From contig WJJS01000001.1 in the NCBI GenBank assembly GCA_014729505.1, forward strand, positions 12,938 to 76,937: a stretch of DNA of 64,000 nucleotides, read 5' to 3'. The position numbers were made by a program, and so were the translations under genes. This DNA comes from Candidatus Woesearchaeota archaeon (GTDB lineage: Archaea > Nanobdellota > Nanobdellia > Woesearchaeales > ARS49). The notes under the pieces are model-generated. The model saw only the letters and a program-made list of their open reading frames with translations, had not been told where the DNA came from and searched no databases. This document shows, piece by piece, positions 3,929 to 46,145 of this stretch (within the stretch, counting starts at the first letter, position 1; each line of letters opens with the position of its first letter).

Positions 3929-6550
3929 TCAGTATTTCCTGAACAGCTTCACGATTTCGCCGAAAATCAAAACACTGGACGCTACAGCAGCAGCAATCAT
4001 CCAATCCATAAATGAAAGCGGAATCGTCTCAAAAAGAGTATTGAAAATACCAAGATGCACACTTGCAATTTGCAAACCAAAACTGAGCAACACCGCACCA
4101 ATCAACCATTTGTTAGACCATAACCCTACCGTAAAAATTGATTTCGTCTCAGAACGCTGATTAAGCACGTTAAACAACTGGAAAAGAACCAAGGTAGTAA
4201 AAGCCATCGTTTGCGCATATGTTTTATTCACCTCAGGCTCGTACCATTCAAACACAAAAAGAGTGCCAGCCATCATCAAAAGGCCAATAAACAACATAAG
4301 ACCTGCCCTGCTCTTGTTAACAATCTTTTCATCAATATCGCGAGGCTTTCGCTCCATAACTCCCGGTTCTTTAGGATCAACACTTAAACTCGTCGCAGGC
4401 AATAAATCAGTGGCAAGATTAATCCACAAAATCTGTCTTGCAGTTAACGGATCAATAAGGCCGAGAAGCGTTGCCACAAAAATAGTCAAAATCTCGCCGA
4501 CATTGCTTGATAACAAGTATATGACAAACTTCTTGATGTTATCATAAATAACGCGACCTTCTTCAACTGCACGAACAATAGTTGCAAAATTATCATCGGC
4601 AAGAATCATATCGCTGGCCTGACGAGAAACATCAGTACCAGTGATACCCATTGCAATGCCAAGATCAGCCTTCTTTAAAGCAGGAGCATCATTAGCACCG
4701 TCACCCGTCATAGCAACAATATGCCTGTTCTTACGCAGTGCATCGACAATATGCAGTTTATCCTCTGGATTAACACGGGCATAAATACTAATCTTTTCAA
4801 CATCACGCGAAAGATTGATAGACTCAAGCTCTACACCCTCAATAGCCCTGCCCTCAAGACCAATCTGTTTACCAATCGCTTTAGCAGTACCGAGATGATC
4901 GCCAGTAATCATCACCACCTTGATACCTGCAGCATTGCACGTCTTAATTGCTTTTTTAACCTCCTCTCGAGGAGGGTCAATCATGCCCTGCAACCCAATA
5001 AAGATCATGCTCTTTTCAATATCATCATGACTCAATTCATCCTTGAACTCCTTATAACAAAAACCAAGAACGCGCAAAGCCTGACTGGTAAATTCATCAT
5101 TTGTTTCAAGAATATGATCCCGATCCTCTTTAGTCAGCCGACGAACCTTTCCATCAACCAACATATGAGTACAAAAACCAAGCACCACTTCAGGAGCGCC
5201 CTTCGTATACGCCGTCTTCTTACCTTCAAAAGTGGAATGAATCGTCGTCATACACTTGCGTTCAGAACTAAAATCGATTTCATCAACGCGCGTATTATCA
5301 GAACGCACCTTGTCAAGATCAATACCTGACTTTGCTGCACTGACCAATAAAGCACCTTCAGTAGGGTCACCGACAATACTATGACGGCCCTGCTCCACAT
5401 CAAGCTGGGCATTATTGTTCAACACTCCTGCACGCAATAACGTATCAAGAGAGGATGTCTCTTTGGAAAAATCACCCTTTGGTTCATAACCAGAACCAGT
5501 TACCTGAACCACCTGTCCATCAACATACAGTTTTTTAACAGTCATCTCGTTATGCGTCAGCGTACCCGTTTTATCGGTACAAATCACCGTACACGCGCCC
5601 AGCGTTTCAACACTTGGAAGCTTGCGCATCAACGCCTTCTTCTTAGCCATGCGCTGCACGCCAAGAGCAAAAGCAATAGTAACCACTGCAGGCAAACCCT
5701 CAGGAATAGCAGCGACTGCAAGGGCAACAGCCTTTTCAAACACTTCAAGAAGATTTTTACCCAACAACACATCAACGCCAATCATCACCATAGCGATCAA
5801 GACCACCGCAGCAGTAAGCTGATATGCCAGTTTCTTGAGATCCTTTTGTATCGGCGTGGGCTCGCTTTTTGTCTTTTTGAGCATAGTTGCAATCTTACCG
5901 ATCTCAGTACGCATGCCAGTAGAAGTGACAACCGCCTTGCCGTGACCGGCAGTAACTGTCGTGCCAGAAAACACCATATTCTTCTGATCACCAATAGACA
6001 AACGATCAGCAATTCTCTTCACATCCTTTTTAACAGGAACAGATTCCCCGGTCAAAGCCGCTTCCTGCGTTTGCACATTCACCGCATCAATAAGACGAGC
6101 ATCTGCAGGCACAATATTACCTGTCTCCAGCACAATAATATCGCCCTTCACCACTTCTTCAGCAGGAATTTCGCGCCGACGACCATCACGAATAACAATG
6201 GCCTTAGGACTCACCATCTTACGCAATGCTTCAATAGATTCCTCGGCCTTATACTCCTGCCAAAAACCAAACAACGCATTAGCAATAACAACAATTGTAA
6301 TAACGTAAAAATCAATAAACTCTTGTAAAAACAAAGAAATACCCATCGCTGCCAAGAGAATCCAGACAAGAGGACTTGTAAACTGATGCAAGAAGATCAC
6401 AAACGGACTTATCTTCTTTTCACGCTCAAGAGCATTTTTACCAAACTTTTGCAAACGCTCCTTAGCCTGAGATTGTGATAATCCTTCCTTAGAAGAAGCA
6501 ACCTTATCAAATACCTTCTCCAAAGGCAGTTGATACCACTCTTTTTCCAT
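3929..6550 (-). CDS. P-type cation-transporting ATPase, type IIA (Ca2+ pump, PacL/SERCA-like)
   Basis: 873-aa ORF with ALTGESVPV (TGES), [10 protein letters not shown] phosphorylation site, MITGDH and [20 protein letters not shown]. Confidence 0.9.
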
Positions 6551-6648
6551 ATCCTGATGTACGCGCTAATAATTATATAATAGTTTCTATACCTGCTCTG
6601 GCAGACGACAAAAAATTTATATGCGTTGCACGTAACCGTCTAATAAAA

Positions 6649-7491
6649 ATGGTGAATGCAAGCGACCTGCTCACAACAACATACGTAACCTGTGATGTAA
6701 ACGACAGAATCTCCTCATTATTAGGAAAAATGAAACGAGCACAGGAAGGAGCTGCAGTCGTAACAAAAAAAGGAAACTATCTTGGCATTGTACATCGCAG
6801 TGCATTTCTCGTCTCGCGAGCGCATGCCAGCGATACAAAAGTAGCAAATATTTACCAACGCCGAAGCAAAGCAAAATCAAACTTTTTTGTACCAACATTA
6901 TCACGCACTTCTTCACTGCCAGTCATGTGCAAACGCATGCTGCAAAGCAATTCACGCATGCTGCCCGTCATGGAAAAAGACCGACTAATAGGAGTAGTTA
7001 AAGATATGGAGTTACTTAAGGCGATAGCTCCAGATTTCTCATCAATACCTGCATTTGAACTGGCAAGCACAGATTCAATAACGGTGAGAGAAAACAACGT
7101 TATTTATGCGGCCATGACTGCTATGAAAAAACACAAGATCGGACACATTCCTGTAGTGGATAAGAACGGAAAACTGTTAGGAATCCTCAGCGGTTATGAT
7201 TATCTGGAAATGCACTTACACTCACGATCACGAATGCATCAGTCACGCAAAGGAACACATTCTGACTACAAAAACCGAGGATTTGATACGGGCGAAAAAA
7301 TAAGTCTTGGAGACTTACCAGTACGAGATTTTATGAGCGAAAAAGTAATCACTGCAACGCCGCGCACAACAATCGCACAATGCATACAACTCATGATAGA
7401 CAATAATGCGCACAGCATTGTTCTCACACGATACGACAAGCCAGTAGGAGTACTTACCTGTCACGATATATTTATTCACGCCGCTCAATAG
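6649..7491 (+). CDS. CBS-domain protein (tandem CBS pairs)
   Basis: 280-aa ORF with repeated CBS-like strands: IGHIPVVDKNGKLLGILSGYD, MLPVMEKDRLIGVV, SIVLTRYDKPVGVLTCHDI. Confidence 0.7.
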   Translation: MVNASDLLTTTYVTCDVNDRISSLLGKMKRAQEGAAVVTKKGNYLGIVHRSAFLVSRAHASDTKVANIYQRRSKAKSNFFVPTLSRTSSLPVMCKRMLQSNSRMLPVMEKDRLIGVVKDMELLKAIAPDFSSIPAFELASTDSITVRENNVIYAAMTAMKKHKIGHIPVVDKNGKLLGILSGYDYLEMHLHSRSRMHQSRKGTHSDYKNRGFDTGEKISLGDLPVRDFMSEKVITATPRTTIAQCIQLMIDNNAHSIVLTRYDKPVGVLTCHDIFIHAAQ

Positions 7492-8320
7492 AAACGCCGG
7501 GAGTAAGAAGTTCCCGCGTAGATAAAGGACAGACAAACGAGGGCAACACTGGTTCTCCAGTACTTCGATTTTCAATTGTCGCGTCATGTCGTGATTGATC
7601 TCTTGAAAGAATGGCTCCGCGTGTTGCACGAAAATGAGTATACAAACGCGCAGCAAGTTCTTGCTCTGTAGGACCAACAATAGTATATTGTTGTCCATTG
7701 GACAATAAATGAACCTGCAACGGCATCTTATACGGCAAAACCAGTTCAGGACCATGAGCACTATTATCAAGATCCTGAGCAGACGCTGCAGAACCATTAG
7801 GATGCGAATGCCAGGTCAGTACATACTCGTGATTCGTTTGAGGACGACCATACGTGTGAGGCAAAATATGTTGACGAGCAACATGTTCAAGAACCTTACA
7901 ATCATCATCACTCCATTCATTTTTTGAAAGCAAAGGACGCGCTTTATCAATCGCTTCTACAACGCCAGTATTACCGGTACGCACGTGCACCCGGCGGGCG
8001 CGAGCAAACAGGCTCTTCATATTGTCAAGATGCTGTGCAGAACCCTCACGTAATTCATTGACATACTCGATCAAGTCAAGAAATTCATTACGCAAAGGAA
8101 CAACAATATAGCGTCCGTTACTCTCGCGGACAATACCGCCAGTTTCATACCCTTGTGTCAACTCGTGATTAGTCTGACTAAGCAAATCACTGCGTGTTTG
8201 ACTGTCCTCAAGCATTTGCATAACGCGAGGACGAATCTCGTCAAGAGAAATGGTGTGCTCGGGCGCGGTACAACCCGCAAGACCGGCCAGTACTATTGTT
8301 GCTAAACGTCGTCCACTCAT
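7472..8320 (-). CDS. Predicted lipoprotein with a JAB/MPN-like metalloprotease motif
   Basis: N-terminus MSGRRLATIVLAGLAGC contains a lipobox (LAGC). YETGGIV and WHSHPNGSAASAQDLD resemble the E...HxHx(6-7)SxxD JAMM signature, with spacing one residue short. It lies 24 nt downstream of lgt. Confidence 0.45.
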   Translation of the reverse strand: MSGRRLATIVLAGLAGCTAPEHTISLDEIRPRVMQMLEDSQTRSDLLSQTNHELTQGYETGGIVRESNGRYIVVPLRNEFLDLIEYVNELREGSAQHLDNMKSLFARARRVHVRTGNTGVVEAIDKARPLLSKNEWSDDDCKVLEHVARQHILPHTYGRPQTNHEYVLTWHSHPNGSAASAQDLDNSAHGPELVLPYKMPLQVHLLSNGQQYTIVGPTEQELAARLYTHFRATRGAILSRDQSRHDATIENRSTGEPVLPSFVCPLSTRELLTPGVSIERRE

Positions 8321-17605: not shown

Positions 17606-17700
17606 GGGCCGGTAGCTCAACCTGGTAGAGTGCTCCGTTGCGATGCTTTCGCCCATCGACAGCGAGGTCCGATCTCACTTGCGTGAGATCCGACAGTTTT
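17606..17700 (+). ncRNA. Truncated tRNA-Ala 5' copy (35 nt, positions 1-34) fused to a conserved two-hairpin element, then a T4 run
   Basis: 17606-17640 is identical to 17730-17764. 17641-17696 holds CGATG-N8-CATCG and GTCCGATCTCAC-TTGC-GTGAGATCCGAC. The element recurs at 20047-20108 and partly at 22438-22462. An A/T-rich TATA-like box lies at 17573-17580. Confidence 0.6.
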
Positions 17701-17729
17701 ATGAATAGGTGTTTTTAGTATACGTTTAT

Positions 17730-17857: not shown

Positions 17858-17879
17858 AGAGGCTGCGGGTTCAAATCCC
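17858..17879 (+). repeat. Orphan internal tRNA-Ala fragment (positions about 42-63)
   Basis: AGAGGCTGCGGGTTCAAATCCC is identical to 17772-17793 of the intact gene, and the flanks differ. It is followed by the hairpin GAAACTGC-TCGC-GCAGTTTC and a T6 run. Confidence 0.7.
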
Positions 17880-20032: not shown

Positions 20033-20108
20033 GGTGGCGGAGTGGCATATTCCGATGTTTTCCGCCATCGACACGGAGGTCCGATCTCGCTTGCGCGAGA
20101 TCCGACGG
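20033..20108 (+). ncRNA. Truncated tRNA-Met 5' copy (14 nt) fused to the conserved two-hairpin element
   Basis: GGTGGCGGAGTGGC (20033-20046) repeats 20133-20146. The element at 20047-20108 has hairpins CGATG-N8-CATCG and GTCCGATCTCGC-TTGC-GCGAGATCCGAC. Confidence 0.6.
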
Positions 20109-20135
20109 TAGTCAAGTAACACGAGTATCATTGGT

Positions 20136-21293: not shown

Positions 21294-22355
21294 ATGGTTT
21301 ATTCGCTAGTCAGACCGCTGCTTTTTCGCATGGACGCAGAAAAAGTACATCATCGCCTCGTCAGGTTAGGAACGATGCTCCAACAAGTTCCCCTCGTCTT
21401 GCCGGTGCTTCGCAGTATCTTCACGTATCAGCATCCCGCACTACACGTACAAGTGGACGGCGTAGCGTATGAAAACCCGATAGGGTTAGCAGCAGGTTTT
21501 GACAAAAACGGCGAAATACCTCGATTTATGAGCAGTTTTGGTTTTGGACACGTAGAAATAGGCTCTGTGACAAGTAAACAACACACAGGCAATCCAAAAC
21601 CGCGAGTGCATCGCGTAATAGAAGAACAAGCATTAGTTATCAATTATGGACTAGCAAATCACGGTGCTGCAACAGTAAAACGACGAATAGCAGCGTATGA
21701 TGAAAAGATGCCTATTGGAATTAGCATCGCAAAGACACCCCGCGTAGGAGGAGAACAAGGGATACGCGATTACGCACAATCATTTAGAGATCTATCCATG
21801 CATGGAACGTATACGACGATAAACATCAGTTGTCCAAATGTGGCAGACGGAGAAACGTATGGAGAGAATCCCCGATTATTGCGATCTTTATTGCAAACAC
21901 TCTCAAAAGAAAAAATCGTCTCACCCGTATATCTCAAACTCAAACCAGATTATTCGCACAAACAAATCGATGACATACTCGAGGTTATCAATTCGTTTCC
22001 GTTTGTAAAAGGAGTAATCATCGGCAATCTCACAAAAGAACGAAAAGGGGCAGTCGCGAAAAGAACAGAGTCGGGCGGTATCAGCGGAAAACCAACTAGA
22101 AACAAAAGCACAGCATTAATACGATACGTCTACAAGAAAACAAATGGTCAACTCACCATTATTGGGTGCGGCGGTATCTTTACTGCCCAAGACGCGTATG
22201 ACAAAATAACATCCGGAGCAAGCATGTTACAACTCATAACGGGCATGATCTATTTAGGACCTAGCACCATAAGAAACATCAATAAAGGGCTTGTTACACT
22301 GCTCGAACAAGACGGATTTAAAAGCATCACCGAAGCAACAGGTTCGCGAGCGTGA
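21294..22355 (+). CDS. pyrD: Dihydroorotate dehydrogenase (class-2-like architecture)
   Basis: NPIGLAAGFDKNGE, GFGHVEIGSVT, GNPKPRVHR, INISCPN and IIGCGGI. I use the ATG at 21294 rather than the TTG at 21285. Confidence 0.85.
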   Translation: MVYSLVRPLLFRMDAEKVHHRLVRLGTMLQQVPLVLPVLRSIFTYQHPALHVQVDGVAYENPIGLAAGFDKNGEIPRFMSSFGFGHVEIGSVTSKQHTGNPKPRVHRVIEEQALVINYGLANHGAATVKRRIAAYDEKMPIGISIAKTPRVGGEQGIRDYAQSFRDLSMHGTYTTINISCPNVADGETYGENPRLLRSLLQTLSKEKIVSPVYLKLKPDYSHKQIDDILEVINSFPFVKGVIIGNLTKERKGAVAKRTESGGISGKPTRNKSTALIRYVYKKTNGQLTIIGCGGIFTAQDAYDKITSGASMLQLITGMIYLGPSTIRNINKGLVTLLEQDGFKSITEATGSRA

Positions 22356-22413
22356 AAGAAAACCACGTTCAAATCCGTAAACTTCTTAACTGGGGCATTT
22401 TATGTGCATATAT

Positions 22414-22462
22414 GCCGACGTCGCATACTCTGCGTATCGATGTTTTCCGCCATCGACACGGA
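22414..22462 (+). repeat. Truncated tRNA-Ser 5' copy (14 nt) followed by a partial copy of the conserved element
   Basis: GCCGACGTCGCATA matches the first 14 nt of the tRNA-Ser at 22756. 22438-22462 (CGATGTTTTCCGCCATCGACACGGA) is identical to 20053-20077. The second hairpin is absent. Confidence 0.6.
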
Positions 22463-22539
22463 CGCGCGGCATTCGCTATTGCTCAGCCCCGCAAGACACA
22501 AATCTTAAAAGGCAGTTCCTTTGTTACTCACTTATTCTT

Positions 22540-22718
22540 GCCGACGTCGCATAATCTGGTACGCTAAAAAACGCATTAGCGTTTTTGGCGCGCCGAAAAG
22601 CTTTGCTTTTCTCGCGTTGCGCCGGTCTTGAAAACCGGTTCCCTTGGGTGCTCGAAAATCTGCGATTTTCGGCACGTACAAAAGCTGACGCTTTTGTCCG
22701 TATCCCGTTTCAAATCCG
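22540..22718 (+). pseudogene. tRNA-Ser(TGA)-like copy with two large insertions/introns and no 3' acceptor strand
   Basis: Matches 22756-22818 except for a 55-nt insertion in the D loop (22562-22616) and a 52-nt insertion at the variable-arm/T-stem junction (22650-22701). The T arm is degenerate (CCCGT) and the sequence diverges after AAATCCG. Confidence 0.55.
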
Positions 22719-22755
22719 TAAACTTCTTAACTAGTGGCATTTCATGCGCATATAT

Positions 22756-22837
22756 GCCGACGTCGCATAATCTGGTATTGCGCCGGTCTTGAAAACCGGT
22801 TCCCTTGGGTATCCCGGTTCAAATCCGGGCGTCGGCG
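22756..22837 (+). tRNA. tRNA-Ser (anticodon TGA), no intron
   Basis: Acceptor GCCGACG/CGTCGGC, anticodon arm CCGGT-CTTGAAA-ACCGG, long variable arm TTCCCTTGGGTAT, T arm CCCGG-TTCAAAT-CCGGG, discriminator G. Confidence 0.85.
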
Positions 22838-22891
22838 TTTCTATGACGCGAAAGCGTCATCCCATTTTTGAAGTAGTGATTTGAACCGGGG
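22833..22891. repeat. 59-nt direct repeat, left copy (starts in the last 5 nt of tRNA-Ser)
   Basis: CGGCGTTTCTATGACGCGAAAGCGTCATCCCATTTTTGAAGTAGTGATTTGAACCGGGG is identical to 23751-23809. Confidence 0.9.
22843..22869 (+). terminator. Hairpin ATGACGC-GAAA-GCGTCAT plus T5 run after tRNA-Ser
   Basis: Perfect 7-bp stem and T-run. It lies inside the 59-nt direct repeat, so it recurs at 23761-23787. Confidence 0.5.
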
Positions 22892-23068
22892 CCAGTCAAG
22901 CTTTGCTTGACGTTGTCCTGGTTTCAAATCCGGGCGTCGGCGTTGTGGGCGCGTTAGCGCTCTTTTTTGTTGTTGTGATTTGAACCGGGGCCAGTCAAGC
23001 TTTGCTTGACGTTGTCCTGGTTTCAAATCCGGGTGTCGGCGTTGTGGGCGCGTTAGCGCTCTTTTTTT
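22876..23068 (+). repeat. Two tandem 99-nt units, each holding an inverted T-arm copy, a hairpin, a tRNA-Ser 3'-end-like segment and a hairpin + T-run
   Basis: Units start at 22876 and 22975, with one mismatch in about 90 nt. Each contains GATTTGAACCGGGG (reverse complement of the T arm) and CCTGGTTTCAAATCCGGG(C/T)GTCGGCG. Confidence 0.85.
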
Positions 23069-23135: not shown

Positions 23136-23336
23136 ATGCCAACAACTATCCAACTCAGCAAAGAAACCAAGAAGCTAATAAGCACGTTTGGTTCCAAAGA
23201 AGATACTTACGACACGATAATTAGAAGACTGTACAAATTAGCTGTTAAGGAGCAACTGAAAGAATTCTTGCTCTCATCAGAAGGAACAATGCCGATAGAT
23301 GAGGCGATTAAGAAAGCCAAGAAAAAATGGCAATAG
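23136..23336 (+). CDS. Putative type II antitoxin (archaeal VapB/DUF217-like)
   Basis: 66-aa ORF. TIQLSKETKKLISTFGSKEDTYDTIIRRL matches the short archaeal antitoxin pattern. It overlaps the downstream gene by 10 nt. Confidence 0.5.
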   Translation: MPTTIQLSKETKKLISTFGSKEDTYDTIIRRLYKLAVKEQLKEFLLSSEGTMPIDEAIKKAKKKWQ

Positions 23337-23668
23337 TAGAGATTACGAAAACACTCTATGAACAGATAGATCGAAAATTCAAAGGAAAAAGTGTCAAAGT
23401 ATTACAACATTTGAAATCATTAGAAGAATCGCCAAAGAAAGGAAAACTCCTAGGAACCATAGGAGGAATAGTGATTAAAGAAGTAAAGTATGAAGGTTTC
23501 AGATTTTATTTCATCACCGACGGATTCAAACTCAAATATACCTCCTCTGAAGATCTTACCGACTTACTTTTGCGGGTTGTAAGAATGTCAGATAAGAAAC
23601 ATCAGCAACAGACTATCGACGAGATCAAACAGATTCTACTAACCATCGGTGTTGAAGGTTTGACTTGA
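23327..23668 (+). CDS. Putative RelE/ParE-fold toxin
   Basis: 113-aa ORF. LKSLEESPKKGKLLGTIGGIVIKEVKYEGFRFYFITDG fits the RelE-like core pattern, and the gene is coupled to the upstream small gene. Confidence 0.45.
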   Translation: MAIVEITKTLYEQIDRKFKGKSVKVLQHLKSLEESPKKGKLLGTIGGIVIKEVKYEGFRFYFITDGFKLKYTSSEDLTDLLLRVVRMSDKKHQQQTIDEIKQILLTIGVEGLT

Positions 23669-23750: not shown

Positions 23751-23809
23751 CGGCGTTTCTATGACGCGAAAGCGTCATCCCATTTTTGAAGTAGTGATTT
23801 GAACCGGGG
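23751..23809. repeat. 59-nt direct repeat, right copy
   Basis: Identical to 22833-22891. Confidence 0.9.
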
Positions 23810-23854
23810 ATCTTTGCTTGGCAGTATGCTGATGAAAATACGGCGTTTCAAGAA

Positions 23855-38826: not shown

Positions 38827-39483
38827 ATGTGTGGCCGCTACGCAATAGTCCAACAAAAAAACGATCTTGAAACATTCTATGACGCCAACATGAAAGCAGC
38901 ATGGAAACCGCGATACAACGCAGCACCCACACAAGAATTACCACTAGTGCTTGACGCAGATCCTGCGCATATCGTAGTCGCTCGATGGGGACTTATTCCT
39001 TTTTGGGCAAAAGACGACAAGATAGGAGCACGACTCATCAACGCACGAAGCGAAACTGTGGCAGAAAAACCGACTTTTCGAACATCGTTTAAGAAACGAC
39101 GATGCCTCATTCCCGCTACACATTTTTACGAATGGAAGAAAACAACAAGCATCAAGAAACCATTTGCAATTCATCTGAAGTCAAAAGAGTTGTTTTCATT
39201 TGCAGGACTGTGGGATGAATGGAAGAGTTCTAAAGGAGAATTGATTCGCACGTTTACAATATTGACGTGCGGTCCTAACAGTGTAATGAAAAAGATCCAT
39301 GATCGCATGCCGGTCATACTCAAAAAATCTGACGAAGAGGCGTGGATGAATCCTACGAGCTCAGAGACTGCACTGCAGAAGTTGTTGAAACCTTTTTCAT
39401 CGTCGCAACTCGTCGCGTACGAGATCAGCACGCTTGTCAACTTGCCGACAAACGACAACCCTGCAGTAGTACAACCAGTCTAA
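38827..39483 (+). CDS. SRAP-domain abasic-site processing protein (YedK/HMCES family)
   Basis: 218-aa ORF. MCGRYA (Cys2), YNAAPTQ, RWGLIPFWAKD, LINARSETVAEKPTFR, RCLIPATHFYEWKK and HDRMPVIL are collinear with E. coli YedK. Confidence 0.9.
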   Translation: MCGRYAIVQQKNDLETFYDANMKAAWKPRYNAAPTQELPLVLDADPAHIVVARWGLIPFWAKDDKIGARLINARSETVAEKPTFRTSFKKRRCLIPATHFYEWKKTTSIKKPFAIHLKSKELFSFAGLWDEWKSSKGELIRTFTILTCGPNSVMKKIHDRMPVILKKSDEEAWMNPTSSETALQKLLKPFSSSQLVAYEISTLVNLPTNDNPAVVQPV

Positions 39484-39535
39484 TCTCTACATTCTTTCTC
39501 ACAAGTCACAAGACACGACTTCGCAGCGCTTTTTA

Positions 39536-40006
39536 GTGACTACGCTTTTGTTTTTTGTCATGGGGTTATTAGGGGTGCGAGGAGAACAACGTATCATCAA
39601 TGATCATATTCTCTACTATGCCGTTTATCACACGCCGTGTTTATTGATCGACGCAGCAAACTGTGCAAACCCACACAAACTATATCCTCTGGCACGTGAA
39701 GAACAACTCTACAACATCCACGTTATTGAAGTCGAACTACTCTACGTTTTTCGCGACGTCCTACTGCGCTGTCACCGCTTTGCACAACAACGAGCAGTGC
39801 GCCACATACTCCTCACGACATTCAACCAACTCTTTCACTATCAAGACGCCAAAGAAAACGACAACATCCACGAACATGCATGGGAATTGCTGCGCACACT
39901 AGGACAACGCTATGACGTACGCGTCGGCATACATCACCGTCACGAAGCGCGCGCAAGACGATTTTGTGACGCGATCATTACGCAGCACTCTCTGGCGGGA
40001 TATTGA
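39536..40006 (+). CDS. Hypothetical protein; possibly a degenerate RecA/RadB-like fold (speculative)
   Basis: 156-aa ORF (GTG start; ATG at codon 9). GLLGVRGEQ and the hhhhD strand CLLID weakly recall Walker A/B. It lies 52 nt after the SRAP gene. Confidence 0.4.
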   Translation: MTTLLFFVMGLLGVRGEQRIINDHILYYAVYHTPCLLIDAANCANPHKLYPLAREEQLYNIHVIEVELLYVFRDVLLRCHRFAQQRAVRHILLTTFNQLFHYQDAKENDNIHEHAWELLRTLGQRYDVRVGIHHRHEARARRFCDAIITQHSLAGY

Positions 40007-40009
40007 ATT

Positions 40010-40324
40010 ATGGGACATACCGTATGGAGCCAACGGATGAATGCAGAGCGCATCATCACAGAACTACTTCGTTACAAGAAAGCATTGCGAAGCGAACAAC
40101 AAGCACTGTTTGACGAATTACTGAAACGATCCATGAATCATCTCGGTACCATAAGTTACGCAAACAGCATGCACACCTGGGCATTACTGCTCTTATCAAT
40201 ACTACTAGAACAAGAACAACGCATAAAGAAACTAGAACATGTGGTTAATAGATACCTATCAAAAAAAGAACAAGATCGTCGTGTGGCTGAAAACGAAAAC
40301 GACGAATATGCATCGAACCTATGA
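40010..40324 (+). CDS. Hypothetical helical protein
   Basis: 104-aa ORF, 3 nt after the previous gene. Its last 86 nt overlap the polymerase start in another frame. Confidence 0.4.
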   Translation: MGHTVWSQRMNAERIITELLRYKKALRSEQQALFDELLKRSMNHLGTISYANSMHTWALLLLSILLEQEQRIKKLEHVVNRYLSKKEQDRRVAENENDEYASNL

Positions 40325-42794
40325 GTACTCTGTCACACTCTACGCACACGAAGATGCACGAGAATTCCTTACAACGAACAAGATTGCTTTTACAGAACAA
40401 CTCAAAAAAGATCCTTTTCGCAACAAGAAACATGTTCTTGCCATAACGTTATCATGCGAACGACTCGCACCATTTGTAAGATGGTTTGAACTCGGCACCA
40501 AACACCGCATACCGCTTTACAATGCAGATATCACGCCGGAACAACGCTTTCTTTACGAGAACAAGCTAGTACCGTGCAGCAACGTGCGAGACGTTGATGG
40601 GAGACTTGTACACGTCAACGAATCCGCACCACCGCTAAGCACTGTTCATTTGCGATGCGCCACACAAGGACCTATTACACGATTAGAATACCAGGATCAC
40701 ACTATCGTAGGCGAGGAACGAGAAGTACTCGCGCATTTTACGCAACGCTTCAGACAGGACGATCCAGATGTACTACTTATGCGACGAGCATACAAAGCAG
40801 TACCACATCTCTTTGAACGGTTACGTGCGAACGGATTGCACGTGCCTTTTCATCGATGGGATGAGATACCGCTGCGCCACCGCGGCGGCAAGACACACTT
40901 CAGTTACGGAAGAGTATATTATCAAGATCACTCGTTTCAACTGCGAGGACGATTACTCGTTGACACGGCAAGCAGTGTAGGATCAACATGCTCTGTACCT
41001 GCAATCATCGAACTTGCACAGCTCACAGGCACTCGATTCCAACGCGTAGCAGCACGCAGTTTCGGTGCCTCATTTCAACTTCAACTCGTCAAAGAACTGC
41101 TCGCCCAAGATCTGCTTGTGCCATACAAGGAAAAACCCTTTGATGAACCGCTGCGCATGACAGAGTTATTCGACGCAGACAGAGCAGGACATACCTTTGA
41201 TCCTCAACTAGGATTTCACAATGATGTTGTAGCAATAGACTTCTCAAGCATGTATCCATGGATCATCCACAACTACAACATCAGCGCAGATACCATACTC
41301 ACAAAAAAAGGAAAGAAGACCAAGATTCCTGCAGTACCAATTGATGTAACCACACAATATCAAGGAGTGATACCAAAAGCAATCAAACCATTGTTAGATC
41401 GACGCATGTACTACAAAAAACATCCGACGCCGGAAAACAAACGACGAGCAATAGGACTAAAAACACTGCTCGTGACCTGTTATGGTTATCTGCGATTTCG
41501 CGAATTTAAAATGGGACTTGCCACATCACACATGGCAATTTGTTCATACGCGCGAGAACTCCTCCTACAATCAGCAACGCTTGCAGAAGAACAAGGCTTT
41601 CGCGTCATTCACGGCATCATCGATTCACTCTACATATCAAAAAAAGACATTACCACAACAGAAGTCGAAACATTTCGAAAAGAACTAGAACACATGAGCG
41701 GTATACCCGTTGCCTGCGATGGCATCTTCAAATGGATCGTGTTTCTTTCACGACGACATGACAACACTGTCGGAGTGCCGGCCCGTTATTTTGGCGCATA
41801 TAAAAATGGTGGCATTAAAGCAAGAGGTATTGAAGTACGACAATCGAGTGCGCCGCTACTTATACGACGATTCCAACAAAACGTGTTAGAAGAGCTCGCA
41901 GCGTTTTCAACGAAAAGAGCGATACAGGATCACTTGCCACAAGTCATGAAACGCGCACGAGCAGTCCTGCACGATCTGCCTGCGACGCCACGAGAAGAAC
42001 TGTGTTGCAGAATACGCATCAGTAAGACCACGTATTCTCGAAACATTCCACAACGGCAAGTGATACGCTTGTTAACACAACAAGGGAGAGACATTATCGC
42101 TGGACAGGTCATACGGTTCTGGTACAGTGCGAATGGACCGTTACTAGTCGATATGACTGGAAGGCCAGACTACAAAAAATATCGCGATTTGTTATTACGC
42201 GCAATACACTCAGTGTACCAGCCTTTCGGTTATACTACCAAACAACTACAACACCTCCTATTAGACGAATATCAAAGCGTTCTGCAAGATTTTGCGCGAC
42301 AACAGATCCGCTACGAATACGTGCCTATGAAAAAACACTATGCACAAAAACGAGGACTGTCAGAGAGAATCCTGCGACAACGACTGGAACGACAAGGATG
42401 GACGGTGTGGCGCGGCGGCAGCATACATATTACTCGTTATGAAGAACTGTATCCCAACGTACGACGAAAGTACGAATTACTCATCCGTCTGCTTGACGAT
42501 CATAAGCCAGACACAAAAGAAATACTGCAATATTATTGCATGATACAGCACGGCATGCCAGATTTTCTCTGCTACAAAAATGGACGATTCAAATTTGTTG
42601 AATGCAAATTGCAATACGAGCAATTAAGTCATCGACAAAAACGCTGCATTATGAAGCTACAAGACCTGGGATTTGATGTGGAAGTTCACAAACTCGTTGA
42701 CAAACGCACAAAAATGAGAGAGGCACTAGTTGACATGTTTACCAATTGCAAAATAGTACGAGAACGACAACTAGCCCTACTCTCAACATGGTGA
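40239..42794 (+). CDS. Family-B DNA polymerase lacking recognisable exonuclease motifs, fused to a C-terminal VRR-NUC nuclease domain
   Basis: 851-aa ORF. Pol motifs: A VAIDFSSMYPW (D334), B KTLLVTCYGYL (K408), C HGIIDSLY (D462). No DxE, NxxxFD or YxxxD at the expected sites. The C-terminus (from about aa 700) reads ERQGWTVWR...GMPDFLCYKNGRFKFVECKLQYEQLSHRQKRCIMKLQDLGFDVEVH. Confidence 0.85.
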   Translation: MWLIDTYQKKNKIVVWLKTKTTNMHRTYEYSVTLYAHEDAREFLTTNKIAFTEQLKKDPFRNKKHVLAITLSCERLAPFVRWFELGTKHRIPLYNADITPEQRFLYENKLVPCSNVRDVDGRLVHVNESAPPLSTVHLRCATQGPITRLEYQDHTIVGEEREVLAHFTQRFRQDDPDVLLMRRAYKAVPHLFERLRANGLHVPFHRWDEIPLRHRGGKTHFSYGRVYYQDHSFQLRGRLLVDTASSVGSTCSVPAIIELAQLTGTRFQRVAARSFGASFQLQLVKELLAQDLLVPYKEKPFDEPLRMTELFDADRAGHTFDPQLGFHNDVVAIDFSSMYPWIIHNYNISADTILTKKGKKTKIPAVPIDVTTQYQGVIPKAIKPLLDRRMYYKKHPTPENKRRAIGLKTLLVTCYGYLRFREFKMGLATSHMAICSYARELLLQSATLAEEQGFRVIHGIIDSLYISKKDITTTEVETFRKELEHMSGIPVACDGIFKWIVFLSRRHDNTVGVPARYFGAYKNGGIKARGIEVRQSSAPLLIRRFQQNVLEELAAFSTKRAIQDHLPQVMKRARAVLHDLPATPREELCCRIRISKTTYSRNIPQRQVIRLLTQQGRDIIAGQVIRFWYSANGPLLVDMTGRPDYKKYRDLLLRAIHSVYQPFGYTTKQLQHLLLDEYQSVLQDFARQQIRYEYVPMKKHYAQKRGLSERILRQRLERQGWTVWRGGSIHITRYEELYPNVRRKYELLIRLLDDHKPDTKEILQYYCMIQHGMPDFLCYKNGRFKFVECKLQYEQLSHRQKRCIMKLQDLGFDVEVHKLVDKRTKMREALVDMFTNCKIVRERQLALLSTW

Positions 42795-42882: not shown

Positions 42883-43659
42883 ATGCACAAAGCATTAACG
42901 ATAGTATTGCTAGGAATTCTTCTAGTTGGATGCTCAACAACACTAGACACGTCGTCGACAAATCCGCCAACAGCGCCGCACTCAACTTCAAGTCCTCCAA
43001 CAACACAACACCCCGCAACAGAGAACAATTCACAACACACCACAACACAAAATGATTCACAATATCCGACAACGCAGAACGATTCACAACACACGGCAAC
43101 CAATGACTACGTTGCGGGACGAGAACTCTTCAAACTACAACGGGATTCAGACAGTGCACTGGGACAACGAGTAACAGACTTTTTCCCACTTCCTGCAGGA
43201 GCAGTTCTTGTCGAGACAAGACATTTTGGAGCGCAACAATTCAAAGCAAATCTTGTATCAAAAACAGGAGACATATTTCCTTTAGTCAATGATGAAGGAT
43301 ACATTCTTACCACTACGCTGCACTCTTTTGCGGCAGGCCAGTACCTGCTAGACATGATCATCAATGGCGAAGTTACCTTTATCATACGAACACCGGACAT
43401 AGAAGAAGCAACATCATGGAGCGGAGCCGGCAAGAAGTTCACCCCCTTCTTTACACTTTCAGGAACCAACACCTTTGAGATGTCGTTTCAAGGAAATGGA
43501 TTATACATCGTGTCACTATACAATCAAGCAGGAGAACGCATCGCCGTACTTGCACAAGGCGACACCACAGAAAAAACAAACACTGACGTAACCGTACCAC
43601 AAGGACTCTATCTGTTAGGTATAGAATCAACAGGAGTCTGGGACATACAACTCAAATAA
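42883..43659 (+). CDS. Predicted lipoprotein with low-complexity T/Q/N stalk
   Basis: MHKALTIVLLGILLVGC contains a lipobox (LVGC), followed by TTQNDSQ(H/Y) repeats. Confidence 0.55.
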   Translation: MHKALTIVLLGILLVGCSTTLDTSSTNPPTAPHSTSSPPTTQHPATENNSQHTTTQNDSQYPTTQNDSQHTATNDYVAGRELFKLQRDSDSALGQRVTDFFPLPAGAVLVETRHFGAQQFKANLVSKTGDIFPLVNDEGYILTTTLHSFAAGQYLLDMIINGEVTFIIRTPDIEEATSWSGAGKKFTPFFTLSGTNTFEMSFQGNGLYIVSLYNQAGERIAVLAQGDTTEKTNTDVTVPQGLYLLGIESTGVWDIQLK

Positions 43660-46024: not shown

Positions 46025-46106
46025 TCCCCGCCCCCGGACTCAGCGTTAACCTGCGGTTAACTGGCTGCAGAAAACACTTCGTGTTTTTGCAGTGAACCAG
46101 GAACCT
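46025..46106 (-). repeat. Partial second copy of the tRNA-Tyr 3' portion (variable loop to 3' end) with a 52-nt insertion in the T loop
   Basis: Minus strand reads AGGTTCCTGGTTCA[52 nt, two hairpins]AGTCCGGGGGCGGGGA. It is preceded by TGAACCAGG, the reverse complement of the T arm. Confidence 0.65.
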
Positions 46107-46145
46107 GGTTCAAGCCTTGTAAGATATTGTTTCCAAAAAGAAAAG

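Follow-up and report, generated by a model that had tools for sequence, protein, structure and literature searches.

Partial tRNA copies and small hairpin units stacked at a tRNA-Ser gene of a Woesearchaeota archaeon: a probable record of repeated insertion at the T loop

Partial tRNA copies beside tRNA genes are a familiar trace of integrating elements. Tyrosine recombinases reportedly integrate into tRNA genes at several classes of sublocation, among them a class with crossover in the T loop, according to work of Williams from 2002. In Streptococcus, the cis-mobilizable elements (CIMEs) are reduced to attachment (att) sites, lack recombination genes and are thought to be moved in trans; we know of no T-arm palindrome or hairpin termini described for CIMEs. 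Split and multi-intron tRNA genes are found in archaea such as Nanoarchaeum and the Thermoproteales. The integration of tyrosine-recombinase elements into archaeal tRNA genes has been reviewed (PMC8371274). In the tycheposons of Prochlorococcus, older elements and partial tRNAs are displaced outward as new elements integrate (10.1101/2020.12.28.424599). In Caldiarchaeum subterraneum, a 5' fragment of tRNA-Thr lies upstream of the gene with a recombinase-bearing element between the two, and a link between mobile-element integration and tRNA gene disruption has been proposed (PMC3293823). The subject here is a tRNA-Ser(UGA) locus of a Candidatus Woesearchaeota archaeon, which combines features of these systems in a very small space. 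It lies in a 64 kb stretch of contig WJJS01000001.1, termed the window, and all positions are those of the whole stretch.

The source assembly is a metagenome-assembled genome. The window is archaeal and encodes aEF-1alpha, aEF-2, ribosomal protein S10 and the quinone-dependent dihydroorotate dehydrogenase pyrD; the nearest other pyrD homolog is only 56% identical. Rfam detects four tRNA genes in the window, two of them intron-bearing, and partial self-copies are present at all four (Ser, Ala, Met/CAU and Tyr). At tRNA-Ser, generations of insertion are packed into ∼1.4 kb. This locus is probably a record of repeated site-specific insertions, with the crossover in or beside the tRNA-Ser T loop (core TTCAAATCC). 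Its parts, whose arrangement is directly observed, are as follows.

22367–22377, plus strand: copy 0, the T-loop remnant GTTCAAATCCG, 12 nt past the pyrD stop and joined to a 36-nt spacer
22378–22413, plus strand: first copy of the 36/37-nt spacer (TAAACTTCTTAACT...GCATATAT), before a tRNA 5' end; 89% identical to 22719–22755
22414–22539, plus strand: copy 1, a degenerate tRNA-Ser 5' copy reaching the variable arm
22540–22718, plus strand: copy 2, a tRNA-Ser pseudogene with tRNA positions 1 to ∼63
22719–22755, plus strand: second copy of the spacer, 37 nt
22756–22837, plus strand: intact tRNA-Ser(UGA), a functional gene (ARAGORN, Rfam)
22838–22877, plus strand: 40-nt spacer S, with the hairpin ATGACGC-GAAA-GCGTCAT followed by a T-run
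22878–22963, plus strand: unit 1, consisting of an inverted T-arm, a hairpin, a degenerate T-arm with tRNA 3' end, and a hairpin with T-run
22964–23068, plus strand: unit 2, 96% identical to unit 1
23753–23830, plus strand: third, partial unit, consisting of CGGCG, spacer S and inverted T-arm, then the decayed hairpin atctttgcttggcag

The intact gene is called by ARAGORN and scores 58.5 bits in Rfam. Upstream of it are three decaying 5' copies, copies 0, 1 and 2. The motif TTCAAATCCG occurs five times in the window, all within 22368–23031, where shuffled sequences lead one to expect 0.16 occurrences. A block made of TTCAAATCCG, the 36/37-nt spacer and the tRNA 5' end is present in two copies, from 22368 and from 22709, with 92–100% identity. 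A reading made earlier from the sequence alone had listed five items at this locus, and all five are present in the window, although two need correction. The T-loop motif had been placed inside the 3' end of pyrD, but GTTCAAATCCG lies 12 nt downstream of the stop codon (22353–22355). Copy 1 had been taken as 14 nt of the tRNA 5' end, but from 22414 it has 19 of 23 nt in common with the tRNA-Ser 5' end, and the decayed copy continues beyond them. After the 5' end, copy 1 has hairpin 1 of a repeated double hairpin, here termed element E, at 22438–22458, then a remnant of the D-stem 3' strand, 'tattgc', at ∼22479, and finally cttaaaaggcagttcctttg, a remnant of the anticodon loop and variable arm, at ∼22514–22533. 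The latter remnant doubles as a TATA-like box for copy 2. A TATA-like box before copy 2 might suggest that copy 2 was the original gene, but this idea is weakened, as the box is the decayed anticodon loop of copy 1.

Copy 2 has the structure that the sequence-only reading described. It is the tRNA-Ser sequence through the T loop, apart from two double-hairpin insertions. The first is 55 nt long (22562–22616) and lies between D-loop positions 21 and 22; the second, of 51/52 nt (22650–22700), follows the variable arm and precedes the T stem. Copy 2 has neither the 3' strand of the T stem nor that of the acceptor. Copy 2 ends at the junction of TTCAAATCCG with TAAAC, which is followed by the 37-nt spacer.

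On the 3' side of the intact gene there are two 99-nt tandem units, at 22865–22963 and 22964–23062, which are 96% identical. These had been recognized before, but the third, partial unit at 23753–23830 had been missed. In unit 1, the inverted T-arm GATTTGAACCGGGG occupies 22878–22891, the hairpin CCAG-TCAAGC-TTT-GCTTGA-CGTTG occupies 22892–22915, and the degenerate T-arm with tRNA 3' end occupies 22917–22942. The corresponding parts of unit 2 are at 22977–22990, 22991–23014 and 23016–23041. In the 3' fragment of each 99-nt unit, the T loop is 8 nt long and a C of the T stem is changed to U. A stretch of 58 nt at 22834–22891, comprising the tRNA end, the hairpin, the T-run and the inverted T-arm, is repeated exactly at 23753–23810.

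For comparison, ∼20 archaeal loci from genomes and metagenomes were retrieved with a tRNA-Ser anticodon-arm pattern; fetched loci and contigs carry the labels L001–L037. These loci bear first on whether the stack of repeats is an artefact of metagenome assembly, if not as a whole then in the number of copies of the 99-nt unit and of the 342-nt repeat. The source is a metagenome-assembled genome, and near-identical repeats of 58–99 nt, though shorter than reads, can be mis-joined. An artefact is nevertheless very improbable: the copies carry point differences (the units are 96% identical, the spacer repeat 92%), and the same plan is present in independent assemblies from different projects (L001, L010, L011, L030 and L035).

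The comparison with related genomes that the sequence-only reading had called for revealed empty and occupied sites, and varied fills, at tRNA-Ser. Contig L012 and contigs L026, L027, L028 and L031 are 100% identical over 300 nt upstream and, in the aligned part, ∼500 nt downstream. The sole difference is a 106-nt insertion directly after tRNA-Ser in the latter four, and this insertion ends in a 16-nt duplicate, AATCCGAGTCGCGGCG, which extends from T-loop position 58 of the tRNA to the discriminator. The fill in L026, 90 nt long, has no relation to the sequence around it. Contig L030, which has similar but not identical flanks, has a different fill of 107 nt at the same place, and this fill has the plan seen in the window, i.e. 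a hairpin, an inverted T-arm, an A/T hairpin and a full T-arm with 3' end. Units are absent from many close relatives (L008, L009, L012, L014, L015, L029 and L036). The difference between L012 and the L026-type contigs, a directly observed indel polymorphism, is bounded by the tRNA 3' repeat, and the units are thus recent indels at a recurrent site and not conserved genes. The comparison of empty and occupied sites was made in relatives; for the window's own species, the closest relative has a pyrD of 56% identity. As in an att scar, the tRNA 3' repeat bounds the insert and its proximal copy completes the gene, both in the window and in L026, L030, L035, L010 and L001, and empty (L012) and occupied (L026, L027, L028 and L031) sites exist in otherwise identical contigs. 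The earlier idea of a hot spot with a T-loop core that has been hit repeatedly is supported by the presence/absence polymorphism, by the different fills at one site and by the integrase blocks that abut the site in three relatives.

The pattern is not confined to tRNA-Ser. Recurrence at the other tRNA genes of the window is likewise directly observed, in the following features.

17606–17729, plus strand: 5' copy of tRNA-Ala, element E (17641–17694) and a spacer
17858–17879, plus strand: 3'-side partial copy of tRNA-Ala, 22 nt (variable loop, T-stem 5' strand and T loop), downstream of the gene
20036–20135, plus strand: 11-nt 5' copy of the intron-bearing tRNA (CAU), element E and a spacer
46025–46145, minus strand: downstream unit of tRNA-Tyr, with the plan found at tRNA-Ser

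The tRNA-Ala 5' copy is exact over 35 nt, lies 124 nt upstream of the gene and stops in the anticodon loop. The 11-nt 5' copy of the CAU tRNA is 100 nt upstream of its gene, and a TATA-like box is found at ∼19983, upstream of this fragment. Element E is a double hairpin of ∼54 nt, with hairpin 1 CGATGTTTTCCGCCATCGACA and hairpin 2 GGTCCGATCTCGCTTGCGCGAGATCCGAC. It has three occurrences (17641–17694, 20053–20106 and 22438–22462, the last being that of tRNA-Ser copy 1), is found nowhere else in the window and each time stands directly after a 5' partial tRNA copy. At the CAU locus, hairpin 1 is at 20053–20073 and hairpin 2 at 20078–20106. Hairpin 1 contains TCCGCCA, the acceptor 3' strand of the CAU tRNA; hairpin 2 displays a compensatory change from G-C to A-T between the Ala and CAU loci. 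The tRNA-Tyr unit consists of a 31-nt spacer, an inverted T-arm (46114–46104), the 5' part of a direct T-arm (46103–46093), a 52-nt double hairpin (46092–46041) that includes CCAG-TTAACC-GCA-GGTTAA-CGCTG, and a 16-nt tRNA 3' end (46040–46025). Its double hairpin interrupts the duplicated 3' fragment precisely at position 57/58, in the T loop. Neither element E nor the units nor copy 2 matched a known RNA family in a search of Rfam at permissive thresholds.

Partial tRNA self-copies are also found in other Woesearchaeota and in one Micrarchaeota contig (L010). The window and 17 loci together contain 34 tRNA genes, of which 15 have a copy of part of themselves, ≥10 nt long, no more than 300 nt away; a control with mismatched tRNA/flank pairs gave a mean of 5.3 and a maximum of 10. 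The downstream units have a common plan, which consists of a ∼40-nt spacer with a hairpin, an inverted T-arm, GC-clamped A/T hairpins and a duplicate of the tRNA 3' end. The inverted T-arm matches the T-arm of its own genome in each case. It starts 41–44 nt past the tRNA end in the window, L001, L005, L010 (Micrarchaeota) and L030, and at +41 in L035 as determined by reading the sequence. Spacer length is kept across genomes, and the spacer sequences are unrelated. Following the inverted T-arm, at once or past a hairpin, are a direct T-arm copy and a variably decayed tRNA 3' end. The plan is also present at L022, at the tRNA-Met of L001 and at the tRNA-Arg of L010. In L011 (4048–4182, minus strand), tRNA-Ala(CGC) is followed by two 72-nt tandem units of the same plan; in their T-arm copy a C-G pair of the gene is replaced by U-A, a compensatory change that keeps the T stem paired. 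The L011 record is labelled Methanosarcinales but has a tRNA-Ser of Woesearchaeota type.

Inserted DNA is bounded by direct repeats of the 3' segment of the tRNA, which have their 5' limits at tRNA positions 49–62 and always run through position 73. In the window (Ser) the repeat is 20–21 nt long and is present in three copies. Elsewhere its length is 16 nt (L026), 23–26 nt (L030), 17 nt (L035), 15 nt (tRNA-Met of L001), 18 nt (tRNA-Arg of L010) and 13 nt (tRNA-Ser of L010, where the repeats flank a 675-nt RelE/StbE pair). The tRNA-Arg(CCG) of L010 (4233–4540) has a 100-nt intron according to ARAGORN, and the 18-nt duplicate of the gene's 3' end is found 107 nt downstream.

Short hairpin modules are common to several loci. 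The module CCAG-6bp-3nt-6bp-CGYTG with a perfect stem is found only at 22892, 22991 and 46041 (minus strand) of the window and at 5161 (minus strand) of L035, where it is inverted and is part of a 5'-side insert. The tRNA-Ser and tRNA-Tyr copies of this module have compensatory changes in two stem pairs. Among the fetched loci, RAAGCTNTGCTTY is present only beside the tRNA-Ser of L001 and L035, and the related sequence AAGCTTTGCTT is found in exact form three times in the window, always in the tRNA-Ser locus and once within insertion 1 of copy 2. A 17-nt hairpin of insertion 2 matches the unit hairpin of L030 on the opposite strand. The copy-2 insertions thus have hairpins in common with the units, and belong to the same hairpin stock.

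Could errors of replication or repair have produced all of this? Template switching at heavily transcribed, hairpin-rich tRNA genes might lead to partial local duplications, direct and inverted, and to short templated insertions, all of which would build up by virtue of being neutral. Such a process could readily give palindromes made of an inverted and a direct T-arm copy, 5' fragments with many different end points, and units mostly devoid of cargo; every inserted piece is a hairpin, and the integrase family of the relatives was not detected in the window. We consider this origin of the pattern unlikely, however. The inverted copy stands at a fixed distance of 41–44 nt in five genomes from two phyla, with L035 at +41 by reading, the hairpin modules recur at several loci and in several genomes, and the repeats always reach the exact tRNA 3' end. 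In addition, the unrelatedness of the 90-nt L026 fill to its surroundings and the RelE/StbE pair between such repeats in L010 speak against local templating.

The constancy of the plan raises the question of whether the downstream units are selected cis elements, e.g. structured 3' trailers in which the inverted T-arm pairs with the T-arm of the precursor, terminators or insulators, or attachment-site decoys that draw integrating elements off the real gene. Both spacing and plan are kept between genomes in which pyrD is only 56% identical, hairpin stem pairs display compensatory changes, the T stem of the L011 unit still pairs through a double change, and the stretch with both units has a much better fold than shuffled sequence (z = –7.7). 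Selected elements, however, would not be expected to be missing from the seven relatives named above or to be polymorphic between otherwise identical contigs. Unit copies also decay, as seen in the 8-nt T loop of the window units and the degenerate copies of L001, L005 and L010. In the window the T-run precedes the inverted T-arm, and the tRNA transcript therefore probably ends upstream of it. A cis function for the units is accordingly improbable.

Under repeated insertion at the T loop, each event would bring in DNA with its own replacement tRNA piece, and the gene would stay intact; the older, displaced tRNA piece would be pushed outward and would then decay. On the 3' side, a unit would supply a new 3' end, a terminator-like spacer of ∼40 nt, an inverted T-stem 5' strand with T loop and one or two GC-clamped A/T hairpins, after which the old T-arm and 3' end would follow. 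On the 5' side, the incoming piece would be the 37-nt spacer together with a nearly complete tRNA (positions 1–63), and copies 2, 1 and 0 would be what was left behind. Most units carry no genes and are ∼100 nt long. They are probably att-only mini-elements that pile up in tandem, presumably moved in trans by a tyrosine integrase.

A tyrosine-integrase gene is found beside the site in relatives. In L022, a frameshifted tyrosine-recombinase gene (Pfam Phage_integrase, E = 3.6e-5, just under the curated cut-off) is situated ∼0.7 kb beyond the unit, and the contig ends after the integrase gene. For the intact form of the protein, ∼282 aa, there are 56 homologs in Woesearchaeota and Nanoarchaeota. 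All contigs examined have the gene in a block, ORF129-Int-Hjc-DNA methyltransferase, which consists of an open reading frame (ORF) of 129–131 aa, the tyrosine recombinase of 282 aa, the resolvase Hjc and a DNA methyltransferase of the N6/N4 type; left neighbours vary. Adjacency of this block to tRNA-Ser genes is directly observed in L032, L033, L035, L036 and L037 (∼5600–7900). Beyond the block are defence-like genes, i.e. UvrD with PD-(D/E)xK, type I restriction-modification, and AAA_15 with HNH. The left end of the block is conserved (TTCCACCAAAACGTG). The block starts directly after tRNA-Ser(CGA) in L036 and after tRNA-Ser in L032, and it starts after the displaced 3' fragment of a unit in L035 and L022. 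The series in L035 is tRNA, 40-nt spacer, ATTTGAACCGGGAT, CCCGGTTCA, 52-nt double hairpin, AATCCGGGTGGCAGCG and Int block, and a 27-nt tRNA 5' fragment lies 130 nt upstream. This order agrees with a series of integrations at a single tRNA, in which the newest piece lies closest to the gene, as is described for tycheposons and proposed for the Caldiarchaeum tRNA-Thr fragment.

That an integrase made the small units, and where exactly the crossover took place, we infer from these associations. Several observations weigh against an integrase origin. Circles of ∼100 bp are poor substrates for tyrosine recombinases, and the very small unit size and the constant spacing of ∼40 nt are not accounted for. 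The 5' fragments end at tRNA positions 11, 13, 19–21, 33–37 and ∼63, and end points so varied are not explained by one enzyme specificity. The double hairpins stand exactly at the junction with the displaced fragment, which an integrase model does not predict. The Int-Hjc block could be a chromosomal cluster of the XerA type and not a mobile element. The integrase family of the relatives was not found in the 64-kb window by tblastn and HMM search, with the ORFs partly scanned against Pfam. The sequence-only reading had also proposed a search for elements that carry the attachment site of a mobile form (attP), and four exact-pattern scans of viral contigs gave no candidate for an attP copy, free or viral. 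Three of these scans, for the window unit, the L026 fill and the 3' end of the L012 type, had no match; the fourth, for the tRNA 3' end, matched only tRNA genes in unrelated viral tRNA arrays. The viral contigs L002 and L003 have arrays of 22–23 tRNA genes, and their tRNA-Ser(GGA) shares a 20-nt 3' end with the tRNA-Ser of the window by chance.

A further possibility, which is more doubtful than the record of repeated insertion itself and can be put forward only tentatively, is that DPANN archaea harbour a hitherto undescribed family of ∼100-nt, gene-less, self-restoring mini-elements that target tRNA T loops and are moved in trans. A member would consist of a replacement tRNA 3' end, a terminator spacer of ∼40 nt, an inverted T-arm and terminal double hairpins, and a mirror-image 5' version would have either the 37-nt spacer or element E. 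The enzyme acting in trans would be an integrase specific for tRNAs, e.g. that of the Int-Hjc block of relatives. The outcome would be tandem build-up and a continual turnover of tRNA gene ends, which might seed introns and split genes.

Copy 2 is a pseudogene. The sequence-only reading had suggested that it may preserve a multi-intron allele, and one can extend this to a working split or multi-intron tRNA-Ser, in which copy 2 and the 3' units are pieces joined by splicing endonuclease and ligase. The inverted T-arm before each 3' fragment is complementary to the T-arm region that ends copy 2, and the organism belongs to the DPANN, a group with known split tRNAs. In a relative, three small insertions even interrupt a tRNA-Ser gene, one of them in the D loop and the others at positions 26/27 and 38/39 (L032, 5336–5474; also L033 and L034). 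This gene, which is missed by ARAGORN, scores 32.4 bits in Rfam and is directly upstream of the ORF129-Int-Hjc block; its D-loop insertion has the position of copy-2 insertion 1, to within 1 nt. Against this, an intact, intron-less tRNA-Ser(UGA) stands between the pieces, like units follow intact tRNAs that have no 5' piece nearby, and the 3' fragments would yield a T loop of 8 nt. In a boundary-anchored, crude scoring of bulge-helix-bulge (BHB) geometry, insertions 1 and 2 reached 6–7, where the random median is 7 and the random 99th percentile is 10. The reference introns scored 10 (Met intron of the window) and 11 (D-loop insertion of L032), i.e. at or above the 99th percentile. A strict BHB scanner missed even the reference introns, and a scanner with 7×7 loops was too permissive. 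The exons of copy 2 do not make up a complete tRNA, lacking T-stem 3' and acceptor 3' strands, and copy 2 has no Rfam tRNA match at E ≤ 10.

Given the missing 3' strands, the lack of a tRNA match, the median BHB scores and the 8-nt T loop, the suggestion that copy 2 preserves a multi-intron allele is not supported as originally stated; that copy 2 and the units are pieces of a working split or multi-intron tRNA is largely refuted and highly improbable. Compared with known split and multi-intron tRNA genes, the locus is alike in its DPANN host, in the complementary flanks of its tRNA pieces and in where the insertions lie (D loop, variable region and T loop). It differs in its intact gene, in the absence of BHB geometry from the copy-2 insertions by the crude scorer, and in fragments that are degenerate and polymorphic. 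Split genes of the Nanoarchaeum type were rejected on account of the intact gene and the 8-nt T loop of the joined product. In addition, a split tRNA requires the complementary stretch to adjoin the exon junction, whereas here a hairpin of 24 nt lies between this stretch and the 3' exon. Insertion 1 of copy 2 may still descend from an intron, as the three-insertion tRNA-Ser of L032 suggests. For annotation, copy 2 and the 3' units should be taken as pseudogene pieces and not as tRNA genes.

Other classes of element were considered and set aside. Miniature inverted-repeat transposable elements (MITEs) or hairpin elements derived from IS200/IS605 do not fit: there is no common sequence 5' of the seven double-hairpin insertions, the copies share only style and short modules, and element E is found three times, always beside a tRNA 5' fragment. 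The palindrome GATTTGAAC...GGTTTCAAATC misfits, by eye, the R''/R' consensus of integron attC sites, RYYYAAC...GTTRRRY, and the relatives' integrase family was not found in the window. Target duplication of the casposon kind was rejected as well, the fills having no terminal inverted repeats.

Two small genes lie between the copies of the 58-nt repeat.

23136–23668, plus strand: two small overlapping genes, encoding a 66-aa DUF7557-like protein and a 113-aa protein

The 113-aa protein has >1500 homologs in Woesearchaeota and Nanoarchaeota, of which the best 120 are 64–78% identical and nearly all 112–113 aa long. Three homologs were looked up, on six contigs; the neighbourhoods of the gene pair vary, and no tRNA fragments were seen near it in the three contigs scanned for them. 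The 113-aa protein weakly resembles RelE (E = 0.1). With so many homologs, such varied neighbourhoods and so weak a likeness, the idea that 23136–23668 is a toxin-antitoxin cargo cassette was dropped. In contrast to this pair, the RelE/StbE pair of L010 lies between tRNA-Ser 3' repeats.

Two other regions of the window have features of note. At 38827–42794, an SRAP peptidase gene is followed by two short ORFs, with no Pfam family above threshold, and by a gene for a family-B DNA polymerase of 851 aa, which has a C-terminal VRR-NUC nuclease domain, an unusual fusion. At 43004–43094, a 27-nt tandem repeat of 3.4 copies (CACAACACACCACAACACAGAACGATT) lies within an ORF of 258 aa, which is rich in Thr, Pro and Ser and has an N terminus resembling a signal peptide.

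The tRNA-Ser locus shares with described T-loop integration into tRNA genes an insert bounded by a tRNA 3' repeat, a gene restored by the copy that the element brings, tandem elements at one tRNA and, in relatives, integrase genes beside the tRNA. It differs in its gene-less units of ∼100 nt, the inverted T-arm at ∼41 nt, the terminal double hairpins and the 5'-side insertions that carry the 5' part of the tRNA, and no such integrase was found in the window. The CIMEs of Streptococcus are comparable in being att-only and in standing alongside complete elements, in tandem, at a single tRNA or att site; CIMEs, however, are bacterial and measure kilobases, whereas these units are archaeal and ∼100 nt. 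Prochlorococcus tycheposon islands are similar in their streamlined host, in repeated integration at a few tRNAs including tRNA-Ser(TGA), and in older elements that are pushed outward while partial tRNAs and degenerated integrases remain (10.1101/2020.12.28.424599). Tycheposons are bacterial, of kilobase size and carry cargo, whereas the archaeal insertions are below a kilobase, mostly non-coding and accompanied by upstream 5' fragments. As at the Caldiarchaeum tRNA-Thr, a 5' fragment lies upstream of a complete gene with inserted DNA between, and the population is heterogeneous (PMC3293823). The Caldiarchaeum insert measures 1.8 kb and has a recombinase gene, whereas at the present locus double-hairpin inserts of 50–125 nt are stacked in several generations.

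The established view behind the sequence-only reading was that of plasmid or virus scars in a tRNA gene. The pieces are instead mostly cargo-less and ∼100 nt long, the pattern extends to the Ala, Met and Tyr genes, and the plan is present in other DPANN archaea. Less familiar than the partial tRNA copies themselves are the small size without genes, a plan conserved in two DPANN phyla and action on both ends of the gene. If the units are indeed mini-elements, the tRNA genes of very small archaeal genomes would be continually rebuilt by incoming DNA. This would also provide a concrete route to the insertions and fragments that serve as raw material for introns and split tRNAs, and a sequence signature by which integration hot spots may be recognized in DPANN metagenome bins.

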